18,161 nt of DNA, from NCBI GenBank assembly GCA_014382495.1, contig JACNJR010000031.1, forward strand, positions 1 through 18,161, read 5' to 3'. The DNA is from Candidatus Cloacimonadota bacterium (GTDB taxonomy: Bacteria > Cloacimonadota > Cloacimonadia > JGIOTU-2). Below are positions 7,783 to 16,369 of the stretch, one piece after another; the stretch's first letter is position 1; each line of letters opens with the position of its first letter. The position numbers were made by a program, and so were the translations under genes. The notes beneath the pieces were generated by a model. The model did not search any database. It worked only from the letters and a program-made list of their open reading frames with translations, and was not told the DNA's origin.

Positions 7783-7959
7783 TTTTTTCTTATGATTTTA
7801 GCCACAGATTAGCACAGATAAACATTGATGGATATATTTTTAAGATATGTAGAAAAAAATCGTATTTAATGAATTTGTGTCAATTTTTTTATAGTTTTAG
7901 CCAAAGCAATTTCTATAATTTATGAAAATTGAGTTATTAGAAGGTCTAAAAAAATTTTC
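7783..7959 (-). promoter_or_regulatory. 177-nt intergenic leader/promoter region upstream of metG, containing short direct repeats
   Basis: The largest non-coding gap inside the minus-strand block. Holds a 10-bp imperfect tandem (gccacagatt/agcacagata, 7801-7820) and TTTTAGCCA at 7796-7804 and again at 7895-7903. No recognisable T-box or riboswitch core. Confidence 0.3.
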
Positions 7960-9147: not shown

Positions 9148-10158
9148 TTATCCAATTTTCTTTTTGGTATATTTTATCAATTTTTCAATTAAATCTTTTG
9201 ACCTGATTCCTTCTGCTTCTGCTGCGAAATTGAGTAAAATTCTATGTTGCAAAATCGGATTTGCGACAAACTCAACATCTTCAATTGTCGGAGTATATCT
9301 GCCATAAAGTGCGGCTCGAGTTTTTGATGCCAGAATAAGATATTGTGAAGCTCGCGGTCCAGAACCCCAATTTACCCATTTTTTCACAAAATCTGGCGCG
9401 TTTTTTTCATTTGGTCTGGAAATCCGCGCAAGATTCACAGCAAAATTAATGATATGTTCCGAGACAGGAATTTTGAATATGAATTTCTGAAGTTTAGTGA
9501 TTTCATCTCCAGCAATCACATTATTTATTTCAGGAAATTCCTGACTTGTGGTGAATTCTGCAATCTGCTTCTCCTCTTCAAAACTTGGATAATCAATATC
9601 GATATGAAAGATAAATCTATCTAATTGTGCTTCTGGAAGTGGATATGTGCCTTCCTGCTCAATCGGATTTTGAGTTGCAAGCACGAAGAATGGCGGCTCA
9701 AGTTTGAAGGTATTATTTCCAGCCGTAACTTCCCTTTCTTGCATTGCCTGAAGGAGCGCTGATTGAGTTTTGGGCGGAGTTCTATTTATTTCATCTGCTA
9801 AAATTATATTCGCAAAAATCGGTCCTTTCACAAATTCAAAAACTCGCTTTCCCGTTGTTTTATCTTCTGCCAAAATATCTGTGCCAGTGATATCTGAAGG
9901 CATCAAATCTGGTGTGAACTGGATTCTGCTAAATTTCAAATTGAGAACTTTTGAGATTGTGCTGATAAGTAAAGTTTTTGCCAATCCGGGAACTCCAACG
10001 AGAAGGCAATGTCCGTTTGCGAATAGAGAGATTAAAAAATATTCAATTACTTTATCTTGTCCGATAATTACTCTTCCAATTTCGTTCACAATTTTTTCTC
10101 GAATTATGCTGAGATTTTTGACCGTTTTTGCATCGTTCTTATCAATAATTTCTTTCAT
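9148..10158 (-). CDS. MoxR-family AAA+ ATPase
   Basis: 336 aa. Walker A GVPGLAKT, Walker B ILADEINR, and MoxR-typical VLATQNP and PLPEAQLDRF segments. Length and architecture match the MoxR/RavA-like AAA subfamily. Confidence 0.9.
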   Translation of the reverse strand: MKEIIDKNDAKTVKNLSIIREKIVNEIGRVIIGQDKVIEYFLISLFANGHCLLVGVPGLAKTLLISTISKVLNLKFSRIQFTPDLMPSDITGTDILAEDKTTGKRVFEFVKGPIFANIILADEINRTPPKTQSALLQAMQEREVTAGNNTFKLEPPFFVLATQNPIEQEGTYPLPEAQLDRFIFHIDIDYPSFEEEKQIAEFTTSQEFPEINNVIAGDEITKLQKFIFKIPVSEHIINFAVNLARISRPNEKNAPDFVKKWVNWGSGPRASQYLILASKTRAALYGRYTPTIEDVEFVANPILQHRILLNFAAEAEGIRSKDLIEKLIKYTKKKIG

Positions 10159-10196: not shown

Positions 10197-11210
10197 TCAA
10201 TTTTTATATTTTTCACTTTCAGATATATTTACATTTCTGAAAGTATCTACTACTTTTACGCCGATATAACTAAAACTGAACAGACCGATTGCGGTTATCA
10301 TAATTCCTGTCAATAAATGCGCAAAACCGACGACGGCGCTGACAAGTTCTCGATTCAAACCGAGTCCAACTGAAAAAATAATCAGCATAATAAGTTCATT
10401 GCTGCCGATCTGCGCTGGCGGACAGGGAATGATGTAAGAGAGGTAAATCAAAGTATATCCAAACAAGATTATTGGAAATGTCAAATTTTCTCCGAACGCC
10501 TTGAATATGAGAAGAAAATATAATGCATCGATTAGAACAGCGCCAAAAGTCAGCAAAATTACTACTGGCAAAATTCTTGAATGATGCTTGAACAATCCGA
10601 TTCCCTCGACAAAATTTTCGATAATTTCAAAAAATTTTATCTCATATTTTTCTGGAATGAAAAAGAGAATTTTATGAAATAATTTCACTACAAATTTTTT
10701 ATTTATGGCAGTCAAAACAAGGATTCCTAATCCGAAAAGGACAACAGCAAGAAGGAGTATGATGAGAATTAGAAGCGGTTTAGCGATATTAGGTTGGAGA
10801 ATTGGAATCAAAATTATCACGACAAAAATCGAAAGTGAATCGAAGACCTTATCGATAAAAACTGACGGAAGCGTTTTCGATATTGCTTTTCCATTAGTTC
10901 GTTTAATAAAATAACTTTTGGCAAATTCCCCTGCGCGAATCGGAATGATATAATTCATAAAAAATCCCGCCATCCAAATTAAATACGCTTTTTTTATCGA
11001 TAAATTGCAAACAGGTTTCAGAATTATTCGCCATCGAATCGAACGGATAAAGTATGAAAATAGATATAAAACAGATGCAATTAGAACATAAACGAAATTT
11101 AATTTTCTGAAATAATCTGCTACCTCTTTTACATTTATGAATTTTATCCAAACGAGCAGAAGGATAATTCCCAATAAAATTCCGATGATTATTTTCTTTT
11201 TATCTGACAT
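10197..11210 (-). CDS. Integral membrane protein of the lysylphosphatidylglycerol-synthase transmembrane/flippase-like domain family (UPF0104, MprF N-terminal-like)
   Basis: 337 aa, about 8 hydrophobic helices. The N-terminal helix followed by FRSIRWRIIL and the overall pattern resemble the LPG-synthase TM domain. No catalytic (aminoacyl-transferase or glycosyltransferase) domain is attached. Confidence 0.65.
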   Translation of the reverse strand: MSDKKKIIIGILLGIILLLVWIKFINVKEVADYFRKLNFVYVLIASVLYLFSYFIRSIRWRIILKPVCNLSIKKAYLIWMAGFFMNYIIPIRAGEFAKSYFIKRTNGKAISKTLPSVFIDKVFDSLSIFVVIILIPILQPNIAKPLLILIILLLAVVLFGLGILVLTAINKKFVVKLFHKILFFIPEKYEIKFFEIIENFVEGIGLFKHHSRILPVVILLTFGAVLIDALYFLLIFKAFGENLTFPIILFGYTLIYLSYIIPCPPAQIGSNELIMLIIFSVGLGLNRELVSAVVGFAHLLTGIMITAIGLFSFSYIGVKVVDTFRNVNISESEKYKN

Positions 11211-11216
11211 TTTTGT

Positions 11217-12059
11217 TTATGTTTTAGTAAAAATCATATATTTATGATGTGCACAGAAGAATTTGATAAAATTAGGAGCAATTTTTTCAAACCAGTAATA
11301 TTTCATCATTCTGTTGGAAAAATCGGAATCTTTATTTGTATAATAATCTAAAATGCATAATTTTTCTTCATTTTTCTCTCTTTTGAGTTTTAACAGAAAA
11401 TCGAGGTGAAAAATTTTAAGAAACTCTCGCTTGTTCATTCCAATATCTGGCCATGGTGGACAGTCAATATAATTTCTCTCTACAAGTTTCCAATTCAAGT
11501 TTTTCATCTCTTTTATTATATTTTTTGGAACAATATTATCCTCTTTCAATTCTTTTTTCAATTCATTTCCAGAAATATATTTTTGGGAAATGTAGCCAAA
11601 TCCAAAACGATTGGGCACACAAATCCAAATCACCTTTTTCGTCACGCGTGTTAACTCTTTCAAAAATATTTCTAAACTATTCACGAACCAAAGAGCTGAA
11701 AAATTCCAACTTATATCAAAGCAATTATCTTCAAAGTTTAATTTTTGAAAATTTTCTTGAAAATAAAAATTAGTTTTTAATCCACAATTTTTCCATACAG
11801 AACGCACCATTTCTAATCGCTGTTTGTCATTATCAATCAGAGTAGCGGAAATGCCAGATTTTGCAACTGCTATAGAATTTATTCCGGTGATTCCCGTAAA
11901 ACCGAAGATTGGAACTTCTAATAGAGTTTCACACTTGTATTTTTTGATAATTTCTCGCAATTTGTTGTTCAAAATGATTCTTTCGTAACTTGAACCAAGT
12001 CCTTCATTTGGTTCTTCGGAGAAATAATTTTGCCAATTTTTCAAAATTGGAATTGCCAT
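11217..12059 (-). CDS. Putative class I SAM-dependent methyltransferase-like protein
   Basis: 280 aa. Possible motif I (LLEVPIFGFTGITGINSIAVAKSG), an acidic end of strand beta2 (ATLIDND), and motif IV-like FDISWNFSALWF. Weak call from pattern only. Starts 2 nt after the upstream gene's stop. Confidence 0.4.
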   Translation of the reverse strand: MAIPILKNWQNYFSEEPNEGLGSSYERIILNNKLREIIKKYKCETLLEVPIFGFTGITGINSIAVAKSGISATLIDNDKQRLEMVRSVWKNCGLKTNFYFQENFQKLNFEDNCFDISWNFSALWFVNSLEIFLKELTRVTKKVIWICVPNRFGFGYISQKYISGNELKKELKEDNIVPKNIIKEMKNLNWKLVERNYIDCPPWPDIGMNKREFLKIFHLDFLLKLKREKNEEKLCILDYYTNKDSDFSNRMMKYYWFEKIAPNFIKFFCAHHKYMIFTKT

Positions 12060-12061
12060 AA

Positions 12062-13042
12062 TTATCTGTCTGTTTTTTTATACCATTCTAAAACATACTT
12101 GAAATTCGGAATTGTGTTGTGCGATGTGATTTTTAAATCTTTTTCTGCTTGTGAAACATCATAATACCAACTTCTGGAAATCAGTTGTATGCGTGCAAAC
12201 CATAATTCATTCTTGATAATTTTTGAAAAAATAAATTCCAATACTCTAAACAGAAATGTCGGAATTTTTTTCCATTTTGGATAATTCTCACTTTTCAATT
12301 CAATATTAATGAAATTTGTTAATTTTTCTAATGAGACAGGAATTTTATCCGAAATATTGTAAGCATTTCCAGATTTGAGATTTTCATTTGCTGCATTTAT
12401 AAACGCAGAAGTCAGTGTTTCAACATCAATCATATTTATTTTAATATCTTGAGACGGACGTATCATCAGACCGTTATCAACCAAATTTATCAATTTGTAT
12501 GGAAATCCATAATCGCCTTTTCCATAAGTAATTGACGGACGAATGATGATAAGATTTAGCCCATTTTTGACTAATTTTTGAAGTTCGTTCTCTGCTTCGA
12601 TTTTAGTAAAATGATAGTAATTATCAGGTTTTCGGTTTGTGTTTTCATTTGGTGGAAGTTCATTTGGAATTGCGCCAAAAACCCCGACGGAACTGCAGAA
12701 AATCATTTTGCAATTATGTTTCAAACATTGTTCAGCAATATATTTTGTGGCATTTACATTTGTATCGTAATAATCTTTTTTAGAAAAATTTCTTCCTCCG
12801 CGAAGTGCTGCAATATGAAAAACAATATCAAATCTGATCTCACTAAAAATCTTTTCTATAAAATTTTGTGAATTCAGCTCGCCAAATTTACAAATTACTC
12901 CTTTGCTTTCAAATTTCTCATACCTTTCGACTTTCGTTTTCTCTCTAATTATCGCAACAATCCTATCATTTTTCTCTTCCAATAATTTTCTGCAAATGTG
13001 TCCGCCAATAAAACCTGTAATACCTGTGATTAAAATATTCAT
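12062..13042 (-). CDS. NAD-dependent epimerase/dehydratase (extended SDR family)
   Basis: 326 aa. N-terminal Rossmann motif ILITGITGFIGGHICRKL and the catalytic YxxxK (YHFTK). The length is typical of the UDP-sugar epimerase/dehydratase/reductase family. Confidence 0.85.
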   Translation of the reverse strand: MNILITGITGFIGGHICRKLLEEKNDRIVAIIREKTKVERYEKFESKGVICKFGELNSQNFIEKIFSEIRFDIVFHIAALRGGRNFSKKDYYDTNVNATKYIAEQCLKHNCKMIFCSSVGVFGAIPNELPPNENTNRKPDNYYHFTKIEAENELQKLVKNGLNLIIIRPSITYGKGDYGFPYKLINLVDNGLMIRPSQDIKINMIDVETLTSAFINAANENLKSGNAYNISDKIPVSLEKLTNFINIELKSENYPKWKKIPTFLFRVLEFIFSKIIKNELWFARIQLISRSWYYDVSQAEKDLKITSHNTIPNFKYVLEWYKKTDR

Positions 13043-13068: not shown

Positions 13069-13860
13069 TTACGAAAAAAAGTTTTTCACTCTTTCTAAAA
13101 ATGAGGTTTTATATTTTTTTTCTTGATAAATCTGTCTGAAGATATTTTCAAATGGCTCGTTATTAATAACCTTTTTGGGATTTTCATACATTAACAATTC
13201 AGCCAAATTTTCAGAATATTTTTCACTCAAATATTGATATGCAGCATCCATCAAAATGGGGCGTTTAGCCAGATTGTGAACATCCGAGGCGACAAAATGT
13301 ATGCATCCCACTTCCAACATTTTATGCGTCAGTACTTGAATTTTTTCACCATAATCTCCCAACAAACAACCGCAATTTGTCTGAATAAGAATGCCGCGAT
13401 TTGCAATATCAAGCAGAAAATCAAAATTATTTATAAATTGAAAATATCGCTCTGCATGCGCTAAAATTGGGATAAAATCTTCAAATTGAAATTCGAAAAG
13501 TGTCTCAAAGAAATTATTTGGAAATCTCTGCAAATCGGATTCTACCAAAATATATGAACTGCCTGCTAATGATAATTTTTCTCTTTTTACTTTTTCAATA
13601 AGATTTGGTTCAAAATATATTTCTGCACCTTTATGGATTTTTATTTGCAATTTGTTTTTGACGATTTTTGCGGATAATTCATCAAATTTTTCATCAATGG
13701 TTTTTCGATTATTGTCATAAGAACCGGAAATTATATGCGGAGTTACAATCACTTCTTTTACGCCTTGATTTATTAATTCATTAAGAATTTCAAAACTTTG
13801 CTCAAAATTTTCAGCACCATCATCTAATCCCGGCAAAATGTGCGAATGAATATCAATCAT
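13069..13860 (-). CDS. CpsB/CapC-type PHP-domain phosphoesterase (Mn-dependent protein-tyrosine phosphatase family, YwqE-like)
   Basis: 263 aa. The diagnostic N-terminus MIDIHSHILPGLDDGA and additional His clusters (VTPHII, ILAHAERY, ASDVHN) are typical of the PHP fold. ATG 13860-13858 lies 2 nt after the GGGPS stop. Confidence 0.85.
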   Translation of the reverse strand: MIDIHSHILPGLDDGAENFEQSFEILNELINQGVKEVIVTPHIISGSYDNNRKTIDEKFDELSAKIVKNKLQIKIHKGAEIYFEPNLIEKVKREKLSLAGSSYILVESDLQRFPNNFFETLFEFQFEDFIPILAHAERYFQFINNFDFLLDIANRGILIQTNCGCLLGDYGEKIQVLTHKMLEVGCIHFVASDVHNLAKRPILMDAAYQYLSEKYSENLAELLMYENPKKVINNEPFENIFRQIYQEKKYKTSFLERVKNFFS

Positions 13861-13862
13861 TT

Positions 13863-14618
13863 TTATCCTTTATGAATTGCGTCTGCAAAATTTTGGATTA
13901 GATTTTTATCGGGATTTTTTTCAAACGCGTGCCCTATCACGACAAAATCTGCTCCAGCATTTACCTTTTTTCTGGCATCATCTGGAGTTTTTATACCGCC
14001 GCCAACAATCAGCGGAATGTCCATATTTTTTTTCACAGCATCAATCATATTAACTGGGATAGACATTTTTGCTCCACTTCCTGCATCCATAAAAACAATT
14101 TTCATTCCAAGATATTGAGCGGCAAGAATGTGTGCAATTGCAATGTCATTTTTATCTCTTGGAATTGGAGTGCTGTTGCTCATATATTGAACGGAAGTTA
14201 GCGAACCAGATTCGATGATAAGATAGCCCGTTGGGATTGTTTCAACTTGCAGTTTTTTTATTAACGGAGCTGCTCTAACTTGCTCTCCAATAAGCAATTG
14301 CGGATTTCTGCTGCTTAATAAACTCATAAATAAAATTGCATCGGCGTGCGGAGAGCCCAAACTAAATATTCCCGGAAAGATGATTATAGGAATTTTTATC
14401 TGTTTTTTGATAGCAATTACAGTGGAATCGAAATCGTTTTTCAGCATAATACTTCCGCCAACGAAAATCGCATCAGCACCCGATTTTTCACAATCTTTGG
14501 CAAGCTCGGCAGATTGTTGTAAATCCTGTTTATCGGAATCTATCAAGCAGAAAAACCCAGCTTTTTTTCTGCGAATTACTTCCAACAAATAATTGTAAAT
14601 TTTATTATTTTTTACCAC
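13863..14618 (-). CDS. (Geranyl)geranylglyceryl-phosphate synthase, PcrB/GGGPS family TIM-barrel prenyltransferase
   Basis: 251 aa and collinear with B. subtilis PcrB and archaeal GGGPS: GADAIFVGGS, IIIFPG, KIVFMDAGSGA, IPLIVGGGIKT, ADFVVIGHAFE. Start is GTG (14618-14616), preceded by GTAGGAGAA. Confidence 0.8.
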   Translation of the reverse strand: MVKNNKIYNYLLEVIRRKKAGFFCLIDSDKQDLQQSAELAKDCEKSGADAIFVGGSIMLKNDFDSTVIAIKKQIKIPIIIFPGIFSLGSPHADAILFMSLLSSRNPQLLIGEQVRAAPLIKKLQVETIPTGYLIIESGSLTSVQYMSNSTPIPRDKNDIAIAHILAAQYLGMKIVFMDAGSGAKMSIPVNMIDAVKKNMDIPLIVGGGIKTPDDARKKVNAGADFVVIGHAFEKNPDKNLIQNFADAIHKG

Positions 14619-14639: not shown

Positions 14640-15482
14640 TCAAAAATATTGTGAAAACCAAAGCACAAGCAAGATTACAAACATATTGACTTTCATCATT
14701 TTTGAAGAAAAAGACGCTTTTTTTTTACTGAATTTCAGAAATAAATTTGATAGATTTATCGGAATAAAAAAGCCGACGAGCAGAATCAAAATTGCAAAAA
14801 CCGAAATTTCATAAAACCTTTCGTATCCAAAAATTGTCAAGATTGTAAGAAAAATCCAGAATAAAAATAGTAAAACGAAGGTAACATTTTTCCCGAAAAT
14901 TATCGGAATTGTTTTCGCATTATTTTTTTTATCGCCTTTAATATCTTCCAAATCCTTCACAATTTCACGAATAATCGTAAAAACAAATGCACAAAAAAAT
15001 ATGAAATATGAATTCGCGATATTTTCATTTGCCAATCCGCCGTAAAGGAATGCGGAAGCCGTAAAAAATGATACTAAAATATTGTCGAGAAATGTCAGTT
15101 TTTTCGCTTTATATGCGTAAATCCAAAGAAGAATTGAATTGCAAGAAGCGAGTAAAATCATCCAAAGATTTTTGAAGATGAAACTAATAATTATTCCGAA
15201 AATAAACATCAAAATTGCAAAATTTTTTGCAGATATTGGAGAAATTTTTCCGGAAGGTATTGCTCTTTTTGGTTTATTTATTTTGTCGATTTCAATATCA
15301 AAAAAATCGTTGATTACATATCCGGCAGCTGCTATAAATGATGCAGAAAGTGCGGCTAAAACAGGGAAAATCAAATTTGAAAAATCAAAATTTGTCTTCC
15401 AATAAGCTCCGAAAAGAACAGATATTGCGACAAAAAAAATATTAAAAGGTCTGGTAATTTTGAAGTACGAAATCAAACTCAC
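14640..15482 (-). CDS. UbiA-superfamily prenyltransferase, most consistent with digeranylgeranylglyceryl-phosphate synthase (DGGGPS-like)
   Basis: 280 aa, about 8-9 TM helices. First Asp-rich motif NDFFDIEIDKINKPKRAIPSG (NDxxDxxxD) and a second acidic patch REIVKDLEDIKGD. The short length and N-terminal FKITRPFN match DGGGPS rather than the longer quinone enzymes UbiA and MenA. GTG start (15482-15480) overlaps the upstream TAG by 1 nt. The DGGGPS assignment rests partly on adjacency to GGGPS. Confidence 0.7.
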   Translation of the reverse strand: MSLISYFKITRPFNIFFVAISVLFGAYWKTNFDFSNLIFPVLAALSASFIAAAGYVINDFFDIEIDKINKPKRAIPSGKISPISAKNFAILMFIFGIIISFIFKNLWMILLASCNSILLWIYAYKAKKLTFLDNILVSFFTASAFLYGGLANENIANSYFIFFCAFVFTIIREIVKDLEDIKGDKKNNAKTIPIIFGKNVTFVLLFLFWIFLTILTIFGYERFYEISVFAILILLVGFFIPINLSNLFLKFSKKKASFSSKMMKVNMFVILLVLWFSQYF

Positions 15483-16369
15483 TACGGCACTCTATCCTGA
15501 ATCGTATCCAGAAAATTTAGTAACATGCTATTATTCGGAATATATTTTATGATATTTCTCGCATCGTGAATGAGTTTTAGTGCTTGCTTTTTCGACTCTT
15601 CAATTCCGAGCAAAACGGGATATGTAACCCGATTATTTTTGCTATCTTCGCCAGTTTCCTTTTCCAATAAATCATCTGCACCAATTTCGTCAAGAATATC
15701 GTCAATTACTTGATATGCCAAGCCGACATTTAGTGCGAAATCGCTCAAAGCGCTGGTAGTTTGCTCATTTGCGTTTGCAACAACACATGCCATTTCTTCA
15801 GCGGCTCGGAGAAGTGCGCCTGTTTTTTTTAGATGAATATCTCGCAAAACATGCAATTTTACTCTTCTTTTCGTAGAAAGCAATTCCACAACTTGTCCGC
15901 CAATCATCCCGCGAGTTGACGCTGATTGAAGAAGAATCTCGAGACAATCCAGCGAATGTTTTCTTTTTTTCATTTTCAAAATAGTTTCAAATGACTTGGT
16001 TATCAACGCATCGCCAGCTAAAATTGCAATCGCATTTCCAAATTTTTTGTGACAACTTGGCTTTCCTCTTCTCACATTTGCATCGTCCATAAATGGCAAA
16101 TCGTCGTGAATCAACGATGCTGTATGAATCATCTCGATGGCGCAGGCAAGTGGCATTATTTTTTGAATTCGGCGCGTGTCTCGACGCTTGATGAGCATTT
16201 CATAAGTTGCAATTAGAAGTAATGGGCGAAGTCGTTTTCCGCCAGCAAAAATCGAATATCTCATCGCTTCGTGAATTTTTTGTGGATATTTGCTTTTTGG
16301 CGATAAGTATTTATTGAGCGCTTTTTCAATTAACTTTTTTCTGCTATCAAAATATCTTTCTAAAATCAA
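15482..16369 (-). CDS. Short-chain polyprenyl diphosphate synthase, probably geranylgeranyl diphosphate synthase (type II, FARM with 2-residue insertion)
   Basis: 295 aa. FARM IHTASLIHDDLPFMDD and SARM YQVIDDILD. Ala and Ser occupy the -5 and -4 positions before the FARM, where C15-limited FPP synthases such as E. coli IspA carry an aromatic residue. This chain-length rule predicts a C20 or longer product. Start is TTG (16369-16367), preceded by GGAGG; an in-frame TAA at 16387-16385 closes the frame upstream. Confidence 0.88.
   Translation of the reverse strand: MILERYFDSRKKLIEKALNKYLSPKSKYPQKIHEAMRYSIFAGGKRLRPLLLIATYEMLIKRRDTRRIQKIMPLACAIEMIHTASLIHDDLPFMDDANVRRGKPSCHKKFGNAIAILAGDALITKSFETILKMKKRKHSLDCLEILLQSASTRGMIGGQVVELLSTKRRVKLHVLRDIHLKKTGALLRAAEEMACVVANANEQTTSALSDFALNVGLAYQVIDDILDEIGADDLLEKETGEDSKNNRVTYPVLLGIEESKKQALKLIHDARNIIKYIPNNSMLLNFLDTIQDRVP

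Follow-up and report, generated by a model that had tools for sequence, protein, structure and literature searches.

The window analyzed here—an 18,161-nucleotide (nt) stretch of DNA from a Candidatus Cloacimonadota bacterium—carries on its minus strand, at 13069..13860, a gene for a CpsB/YwqE-type PHP metal-dependent phosphatase. This PHP protein belongs to a known family and stands in a functional context that is new and conserved: it lies outside the capsule setting of the bacterial tyrosine kinases (BY-kinases) and is fixed in an operon for isoprenoid lipids, directly downstream of the gene for PcrB, a geranylgeranylglyceryl phosphate (GGGP) synthase (GGGPS). The linkage of PcrB and PHP is not a matter of chance; it is real, conserved, and reciprocal. 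We regard the PHP protein as the best available, though not a proven, candidate for the enzyme that removes phosphate from the archaea-like ether lipids of Cloacimonadota. In the FCB (Fibrobacteres-Chlorobi-Bacteroidetes) superphylum, the genes for GGGPS and for digeranylgeranylglyceryl phosphate (DGGGP) synthase (DGGGPS) are central to the debate on the "lipid divide"; a phosphatase gene tied to GGGPS, always in Cloacimonadota and again in loci of a Caldithrix type, is a clonable candidate for the next step.

Linkage of the PHP and PcrB genes

Only 2 nt separate the two genes in the window. The PcrB stop codon TAA is read at 13865-13863 and is followed by AA and by the PHP start codon ATG at 13860-13858 (...CAT AAA GGA TAA AA ATG ATT GAT ATT CAT...); PcrB ends in HKG-stop, and the PHP protein of 263 amino acids (aa) begins with MIDIH. 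A Shine-Dalgarno-like AGGA motif of the PHP gene (13866..13869, minus strand) lies within the last PcrB codons, 5 nt ahead of the ATG, and its position inside the PcrB 3' end suggests that translation of the two genes is coupled. Re-reading of the open reading frames (ORFs) and of the junction confirmed the coordinates, the 2-nt spacing, and the neighboring genes given in a preliminary description of this DNA; that description was also right to place the PHP gene in the polyprenyl-synthase/DGGGPS/GGGPS unit, but it mentioned neither the four further genes downstream nor the minus strand. The identical protein occurs on 21 near-identical contigs (up to 66 kb), under the database name 'MAG: phosphoesterase [Candidatus Cloacimonetes bacterium]'.

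Homologues of the PHP protein split sharply into a close group with at least 48% identity (P0001-P0026; E<=1e-72) and a remainder with at most 41%. In the neighborhoods of the closest homologues—a comparison that the preliminary description had proposed—the order polyprenyl diphosphate synthase (PolyPS)-UbiA-PcrB-PHP is retained, at 52-55% protein identity and with different flanks (PriA upstream, convergent genes downstream); the loci of this close group include some labelled Ca. Celaenobacter polaris and Ca. Electryonea clarkiae. Three further arrangements appear among the more distant Cloacimonadota PHP genes (33-39% identity), and the whole operon is kept at 37% identity. The clusters can be sorted into types: type a (loci L014, L023, L179) is the full eight-gene operon as in the window; type b (L011-L013, L097-L100) has PolyPS-UbiA-PcrB-PHP with the remaining block elsewhere; type c (L030, L178) has PcrB and PHP followed by a short-chain dehydrogenase/reductase (SDR), a methyltransferase (MTase), in parts of the type the LPG_synthase_TM gene (LPGTM), and MoxR, without UbiA or PolyPS; and type d (L015-L018, L021, L024, L025, L073) is PolyPS-PHP-SDR-(MTase)-LPGTM-MoxR in loci that lack both UbiA and PcrB. 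Homologues of PolyPS, DGGGPS, and GGGPS stand on one strand in the window and also in L011-L014, L023, L097-L102, and L179.

The linkage can be read from the PcrB side as well. Here the sample consisted of 80 metagenomic loci with an FCB-type PcrB at 47-66% identity, 73 of them evaluable (loci lacking PHP needed at least 400 bp downstream). A PHP gene lies at most 86 bp downstream of PcrB, on the same strand, in 21 of the 73, and no locus has one in another place. These 21 form two synteny classes: seven are of the Cloacimonadota type, with UbiA and PolyPS, and 14 are of the Caldithrix type, with the order RecA-RecX-AlaRS-PcrB-PHP-...-BatA-HflX and without UbiA or PolyPS, as in a Caldithrix sp. 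genome (L027) and in L041. When two additional Cloacimonadota PcrB genes were picked blind for their long contigs, both had an overlapping PHP gene; PHP is directly downstream of every Cloacimonadota PcrB seen (at least 16 distinct loci), often overlapping it. With all Cloacimonadota PcrB loci seen and a second FCB lineage behind it, the PHP gene truly belongs to the polyprenyl-synthase/DGGGPS/GGGPS unit and is conserved in it, much as first described. PcrB-PHP fusions were absent from the best 120 matches of either search; all were single-domain proteins of 233-270 aa.

A bootstrapped neighbor-joining (distance) tree of 87 PHP proteins (100 bootstraps) groups the window subclade, which is always PcrB-linked, with 97% support and the remaining Cloacimonadota PHP proteins with 96% support; the union of the two receives 59%. 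Within the second group, loci with and without PcrB are interleaved—on the simplest reading of the tree, UbiA-PcrB would have been lost or relocated at least twice while PHP was retained. The nearest neighbors of the Cloacimonadota clade in this tree, whose deep nodes are weakly separated, are Bacteroidota PHP proteins. The Caldithrix-type PcrB-linked proteins join the Cloacimonadota clade in 0 of 100 bootstraps, and the PcrB-PHP pairing would therefore be either very old or have arisen twice; either origin argues for selection on adjacency.

The PHP protein and its family setting

As the preliminary description proposed, the protein is of the CpsB/YwqE type, and database matches and model agree on this. 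Its sole Pfam match is PF19567 CpsB_CapC, which covers residues 1-233 against positions 1-234 of a 234-position profile (E=2.5e-60; 204.3 bits, cut-off 27). Sequence search of the PDB returned YwqE (3qy6, E=1.9e-39) and CpsB (3qy8 and 2wjd, E ~1e-32) and no other solved relatives. An AlphaFold2 model built from 14 relatives (predicted local distance difference test score, pLDDT, 91) was compared with known structures using Foldseek: YwqE 3qy6 superposes with template modeling (TM) scores of 0.88/0.94 and a root-mean-square deviation (rmsd) of 1.5 Å, followed by 3qy8 and 2wjd (TM 0.83-0.91), and the next structural neighbors—lactonase, phosphotriesterases, and histidinol-phosphate phosphatases—are much weaker. 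The modeled fold is thus the distorted TIM barrel known from crystals of YwqE and Cps4B. The protein scores 147 bits with the Cps4B equivalog model NF041488, whose cut-off is 400 bits, and so falls outside that equivalog.

The active site of the family is best described for Cps4B, which binds three metals (ligands H5, H7, E80, H136, D199, and others), the third, M3, being held by His42, Asp14, and His201 (PMC2777267). A metal-bridged hydroxide attacks a phosphomonoester that Arg139 holds in place, and this Arg is the most important residue for catalysis (R139A retains 5% activity); Arg206 is a second phosphate ligand, and a mobile loop carries an FG(D/E)(K/R) motif (PMC2777267). In the window protein H5, H7, D14, H42, E80, E107, H135, R138, D193, and H195 are all present and are invariant in 14-16 aligned relatives. 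The loop motif is retained as YGEK, and KRP at 201-203 places R202 as the counterpart of Arg206. Side by side, YwqE of Bacillus subtilis and CpsB/Cps4B/Wzh of Streptococcus pneumoniae, which are Mn-dependent protein-tyrosine phosphatases, share with the window protein ~30% identity over the full length, the fold (TM 0.83-0.94, rmsd 1.5-2.3 Å), the same three-metal ligands (E107/108, H135/136), the same catalytic Arg (R138/R139) and second Arg (R202/R206), and the aromatic-Gly-acidic-basic loop. With a full family match and all functional residues in place, the protein is therefore a bona fide member of the CpsB/YwqE family and presumably active, with a trinuclear metal center as predicted from sequence and model.

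Beyond the family domain, at residues ~250-263 (window 13069-13110), the protein ends in a basic amphipathic tail (K/R-rich, then F/L/I-x-x-K/R-x-F), which in the model follows a low-confidence linker. We considered this tail as a membrane anchor specific to a lipid enzyme and rejected the idea, since many BY-kinase-linked members have the tail as well; its role may be a general one in binding membranes or partners.

What sets the window protein apart is its genomic setting. In polysaccharide loci the genes for YwqE and CpsB adjoin those of a kinase and its modulator (ywqCD/cpsCD), whereas the window gene adjoins GGGP synthase, with no kinase within ~31 kb. Php1 of Porphyromonas gingivalis offers a closer comparison, being of the same family and from the same FCB superphylum: php1 is immediately downstream of the BY-kinase gene ptk1, and Php1 dephosphorylates Ptk1 (PMC6759763), while the Cloacimonadota genes adjoin PcrB or polyprenyl synthase instead. 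A capsule phosphatase is recognized by a gene beside a BY-kinase/Wzz modulator in a polysaccharide locus. In agreement with the preliminary description, no such neighbor is found here: Wzz, BY-kinase, Poly_export, and Wzx/Wzy-type genes are absent from the window and from ~31 kb of its source contig. In a sample of 80 species-representative PHP genome loci, scored with custom hidden Markov models for BY-kinase/Wzz within 3.1 kb, such a gene was found at 48 of 71 loci from other phyla (68%) and at none of nine from Cloacimonadota, all nine of which are lipid-type arrangements; seven metagenomic Cloacimonadota PHP loci also have no adjacent BY-kinase.

The operon and its surroundings

From 16369 down to 9148 every gene of the window is on the minus strand, and the genes follow one another almost without a break, with gaps, in order, of -1, 21, 2, 26, 2, 6, and 38 nt. 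The first gene (15482..16369, 295 aa; PF00348 E=1e-59; NF045485 305 bits) encodes a short-chain trans polyprenyl diphosphate synthase resembling geranylgeranyl diphosphate (GGPP) synthases, and its stop codon shares 1 nt with the start codon of UbiA. By the chain-length rule for polyprenyl synthases, a small residue at -5 before the first Asp-rich motif is of the GGPP-synthase type; here an Ala is found at position -5 before DDLPFMD, and the predicted product is the C20 compound GGPP. In the Cloacimonas-type PolyPS of clusters without PcrB (L015, L021, L024, L025, L073) the motif reads DDLPxxMN instead of DDLPxxD, the last Asp being replaced by Asn, and these altered enzymes still have a small residue at -5. 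Some 20 nt upstream of PolyPS, on the same strand, two divergent full-length Cloacimonadota operons carry a gene for a Gfo/Idh/MocA-family NAD(P) oxidoreductase (L014:4464-5501, L179:4230-5261). The window has no such gene, whose product is a possible candidate for the missing dehydrogenase that forms glycerol-1-phosphate (G1P).

The second gene (14640..15482, minus strand, 280 aa; PF01040 E=5e-38) encodes a DGGGPS-like prenyltransferase of the UbiA family and is separated by 21 nt from PcrB; its best NCBIfam models are DGGGPS models (NF009521, 191 bits), with every score under its cut-off. PcrB itself (13863..14618, minus strand, 251 aa; PF01884 E=7e-46) is a GGGP synthase of the FCB group type and exceeds the cut-offs of both TIGR01769 (217.8 bits; 161.55) and NF003198 (299 bits; 247).

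Downstream of PHP, after 26 nt, comes an extended SDR resembling NAD-dependent epimerases and 3-beta-hydroxysteroid dehydrogenases (12062..13042, minus strand, 326 aa; PF01370 E=5e-30, PF01073 E=8e-24). It resembles HpnA, OleD, and SdmB weakly, with scores far under their cut-offs, matches only generic UDP-sugar epimerases in the PDB (E ~1e-13), and stands directly after PHP in cluster types a, c, and d. It is followed after 2 nt by a class I methyltransferase dependent on S-adenosylmethionine (11217..12059, minus strand, 280 aa; PF08241 E=6e-10), which has no match among PDB sequences at E<=0.01 and is kept after the SDR in most Cloacimonadota clusters. After a further 6 nt lies an LPG_synthase_TM/flippase-like integral membrane protein (10197..11210, minus strand, 337 aa; PF03706 E=1.5e-45; TIGR00374 131 bits, cut-off 43.2), whose gene is conserved within the Cloacimonadota cluster. 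These three—SDR, methyltransferase, and flippase-like protein—are the most constant partners of PHP. A MoxR-type AAA+ ATPase gene (9148..10158, minus strand, 336 aa; PF07726 E=2e-62) follows after 38 nt, as it does after the flippase-like gene in nearly all Cloacimonadota loci; it is the usual last gene of the conserved block, and its membership in the operon is uncertain. The Caldithrix-type PcrB-PHP pair, for its part, is followed by a BatA/VWA protein (L027:10794-12926); MoxR and BatA are members of one gene set, the Bat/MoxR 'aerotolerance' genes, and may be traces of an ancient FCB synteny around PcrB-PHP.

A consensus scan, in which promoter and terminator counts were at chance level, placed no terminator-like site between genes of the operon strand; a single such site on the minus strand, 16243-16225, falls inside the polyprenyl synthase ORF. 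GC content gave no signal of horizontal transfer, being flat at 0.29-0.37 over the window. Elsewhere in the window, a gene for an FAD-dependent oxidoreductase of the DAO family (1746-2846, 366 aa) adjoins those for a TerB-domain protein and MiaB, and the spacer at 7783-7959, between the gene for methionyl-tRNA synthetase (MetRS) and an 85-aa ORF, is 321 nt and 214 nt longer in L003 and L005, respectively; these are otherwise near-identical contigs from sister samples, and the difference is strain-level length variation.

The order AlaRS-PcrB is also present in 28 of the 52 sampled PcrB loci that have no PHP gene. In PHP-less AlaRS-PcrB loci (L104-L176, e.g., L134:7034-7687) the next gene is most often one for an SIS_2 protein of ~217 aa (21 of 52), which is sugar-phosphate isomerase-like, and other PHP-less loci have a PfkB kinase or Memo-like protein after PcrB. 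An enzyme for sugar or polyol phosphates next to GGGPS might be relevant to the source of glycerol-1-phosphate.

Candidate substrates and implications

Part of this operon has been described before. Villanueva et al. (2020) reported a PriA/polyprenyl synthase/DGGGPS/GGGPS scaffold from Black Sea Ca. Cloacimonetes, and co-expression of the DGGGPS and GGGPS orthologues in Escherichia coli gave ether-linked isoprenoid phospholipids (PMC7852524). Phylum and gene block are those of the window, and L011-L013 repeat the published PriA-polyprenyl synthase-UbiA-PcrB order; the gene after GGGPS is not mentioned in that paper, whose main text contains the words 'operon', 'phosphatase', and 'phosphoesterase' 0 times (PMC7852524). 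Our literature search found no publication combining GGGPS with CpsB, PHP, or tyrosine phosphatase, and the PcrB-PHP genomic association is apparently undescribed. The Cloacimonetes metagenome-assembled genomes (MAGs) contain neither CarS nor a G1P dehydrogenase (egsA/araM) and do encode bacterial phosphatidylglycerophosphate (PGP) phosphatases; activation with cytidine diphosphate (CDP) was proposed to proceed through promiscuous bacterial enzymes (PMC7852524). Without CarS, a route that bypasses CDP-archaeol is plausible, and a dedicated phosphatase would, unlike the proposed CDP-activation, point to a neutral-lipid branch.

Such a branch has a precedent in B. subtilis, where heptaprenylglyceryl phosphate is dephosphorylated by a phosphatase called 'non-specific' and then acetylated by YvoF (PMC12345273, PMC9179154), the product being an acetyl-carrier lipid (PMC12345273); dephosphorylation of DGGGP before acetylation has also been postulated for Halobacteria (PMC9179154). 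In the PcrB/YvoF/LhaT route of B. subtilis the prenylglycerol is tailored and must cross the membrane; in Cloacimonadota the dephosphorylation would fall to PHP, and a flippase-like gene is part of the operon. The systems differ in several respects: Bacillus has no known phosphatase dedicated to the step, nor a PHP gene near pcrB, whereas the Cloacimonadota operon has PHP directly after PcrB; tailoring is by an acetyltransferase in the former and by a candidate SDR and methyltransferase in the latter; and the prenyl chain is C35 in Bacillus as against a predicted C20 here.

On gene order, then, we tentatively favor a PHP protein that acts on GGGP, DGGGP, or a related prenyl phosphate—a reading for which we see a reasonable chance, if somewhat less than an even one. 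The GGPP-synthase-like enzyme would supply GGPP, from which PcrB/GGGPS and the DGGGPS-like UbiA protein would place one or two geranylgeranyl chains on glycerol phosphate. The PHP protein, translated directly after PcrB, would hydrolyze the phosphomonoester in GGGP, in DGGGP, or in both, or else in a close prenyl phosphate, by attack of the metal-bridged hydroxide on a phosphate held by Arg138. The resulting neutral prenylglycerol or archaeol-type alcohol could be tailored by the SDR and the methyltransferase, and the flippase-like protein could transfer the tailored lipid across the membrane. CpsB-family chemistry is not intrinsically protein-specific, because enzymes of the family hydrolyze p-nitrophenyl phosphate. 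We are more doubtful about the wider proposal that a clade of CpsB/YwqE-type PHP proteins was recruited in FCB-group bacteria as their dedicated prenylglyceryl-phosphate (GGGP/DGGGP) phosphatase. Archaeal-type ether lipids would then end not as membrane phospholipids, the fate proposed so far, but as a neutral lipid, such as a carrier or the core of a glycolipid, that is tailored and flipped with the help of the downstream SDR, methyltransferase, and flippase-like protein.

Several observations weigh against a substrate of this kind. The PHP gene is missing from 52 of the 73 evaluable FCB-type PcrB loci. Conversely, the eight type d loci of Cloacimonadota, from two branches of the PHP tree, have no UbiA or PcrB within a 20-kb locus and keep all catalytic residues; the role of PHP does not need an adjacent PcrB, and GGGP/DGGGP is therefore not the sole substrate unless PcrB sits elsewhere in those genomes. 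The sequence and model of the window protein are indistinguishable from those of canonical tyrosine phosphatases. A comparison of 27 Cloacimonadota, two Caldithrix-type, and 48 BY-kinase-linked PHP proteins gave a subfamily signature of only 4-5 weakly discriminating positions, none common to both PcrB-linked lineages: Cloacimonadota differ at 29, 99, 156, and 216 (and R155), and the Caldithrix type is BY-kinase-like at all of these. The window subclade and the Caldithrix type retain the second Arg (R202), which other Cloacimonadota have lost, and a changed pocket in PcrB-linked PHP proteins gets no support from the residue comparison. To our knowledge, no lipid substrate is known for any member of the CpsB/YwqE family. 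DGGGPS, moreover, requires phosphorylated GGGP, so early dephosphorylation would compete with the second prenylation. Finally, a complete Cloacimonadales chromosome (OY782781.1; L017:14659-20728) carries genes for Wza (Poly_export), LytR_CpsA_Psr, and a Wzc-type BY-kinase, on the opposite strand and 4-10 kb from its PolyPS-PHP-SDR-LPGTM-MoxR cluster. The term 'orphan' in the preliminary description accordingly fits the immediate surroundings of PHP in the nine Cloacimonadota genome loci, but is uncertain for the genome as a whole; likewise, the gene-order association behind its lipid-phosphate proposal is conserved, but PcrB-less clusters keep PHP and neither sequence nor model separates the protein from tyrosine phosphatases. 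That the substrate role was drawn from gene order, as was said at the time, still applies.

The main rival is an ordinary protein-tyrosine phosphatase that acts on a distant BY-kinase or on tyrosine-phosphorylated enzymes of the lipid pathway, its place in the operon being due to co-expression or history; we consider this possible but doubtful. Every family-defining feature is kept, the model is essentially YwqE, no specificity-determining differences stand out, and the window subclade has the second phosphate-binding Arg. Php1 is a proven BY-kinase phosphatase from the FCB group, and kinase and phosphatase genes can lie far apart, as do those of Ptk1 and Ltp1 (PMC6759763). The Cloacimonadales Wzc-LytR-Wza locus is close to a PHP cluster; the three genes Wza, LytR, and Wzc recur in a related locus (L177), where no phosphatase is nearby. 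Since all Cloacimonadota CpsB-type matches fall in one clade, these genomes also seem to have no CpsB-type gene besides PHP. However, adjacent BY-kinases are absent from all Cloacimonadota loci sampled and common in other phyla, and random placement fails to explain a PcrB-PHP junction kept through several rearrangements and in a second phylum. A search with the L017 Wzc in a collection of 5.8 billion proteins returned four close relatives, none named Cloacimonadota; set against an abundant and phylum-wide PHP, this scarcity hints at a lack of co-variation, weakly, the search being word-indexed.

A different view takes its start from the gene upstream of PHP, which in all five architectures encodes an enzyme that uses a prenyl diphosphate and releases pyrophosphate (PPi)—PcrB or, failing that, polyprenyl synthase. 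PHP might serve prenyl transfer in general, by hydrolyzing released PPi and so pulling the reactions forward, or by trimming GGPP to geranylgeranyl phosphate (GGP) or geranylgeraniol for the SDR/methyltransferase/flippase-like module. No other reading accommodates the PcrB-less clusters unless something more is assumed. Whatever the cluster type, the PolyPS beside PHP carries at -5 a small residue of the kind found in GGPP synthases, so that a C20 diphosphate would apparently be made even where no PcrB is adjacent. E. coli DnaE is a documented case of a PHP domain with pyrophosphatase activity (PMC4822814), and roles on PPi or lipid carriers were once suggested for CpsB-type enzymes (PMC2364625). 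We nevertheless think it unlikely: no enzyme of the CpsB/YwqE subfamily is known to hydrolyze either PPi or a prenyl diphosphate, housekeeping pyrophosphatases are a normal part of the cell, a phosphatase for GGPP beside PcrB would destroy the substrate of PcrB, and this proposal, too, is drawn from gene order.

Very improbable, in our view, is a role on a phosphorylated head group or precursor, whether as an archaetidylglycerophosphate-type phosphatase or as an esterase that frees sn-glycerol-1-phosphate from a glycerophosphodiester for PcrB. The idea gains from the absence of egsA/araM from Cloacimonetes MAGs (PMC7852524) and from the diesterases and histidinol-phosphate phosphatases of the PHP superfamily, found among the structural neighbors of the model. 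Yet the active site of CpsB-type enzymes is that of a monoesterase (PMC2777267), bacterial PGP phosphatases are already present in the MAGs (PMC7852524), the PcrB-less clusters are left unexplained, and the basis is indirect.

Should PHP dephosphorylate GGGP or DGGGP, neutral or otherwise modified ether lipids, and not archaeal-type phospholipids, would be the probable products in these bacteria; this would change how 'mixed membranes' are read and which environmental lipids should be sought. A family regarded as one of protein-tyrosine phosphatases would gain its first lipid substrate and so a wider substrate range, and the step called 'non-specific' in Bacillus would have its first dedicated enzyme. 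If the protein is a tyrosine phosphatase instead, the synthesis of isoprenoid lipids would be under the control of phosphorylation. Either way, the operon has four or five genes more than its published description gives it.

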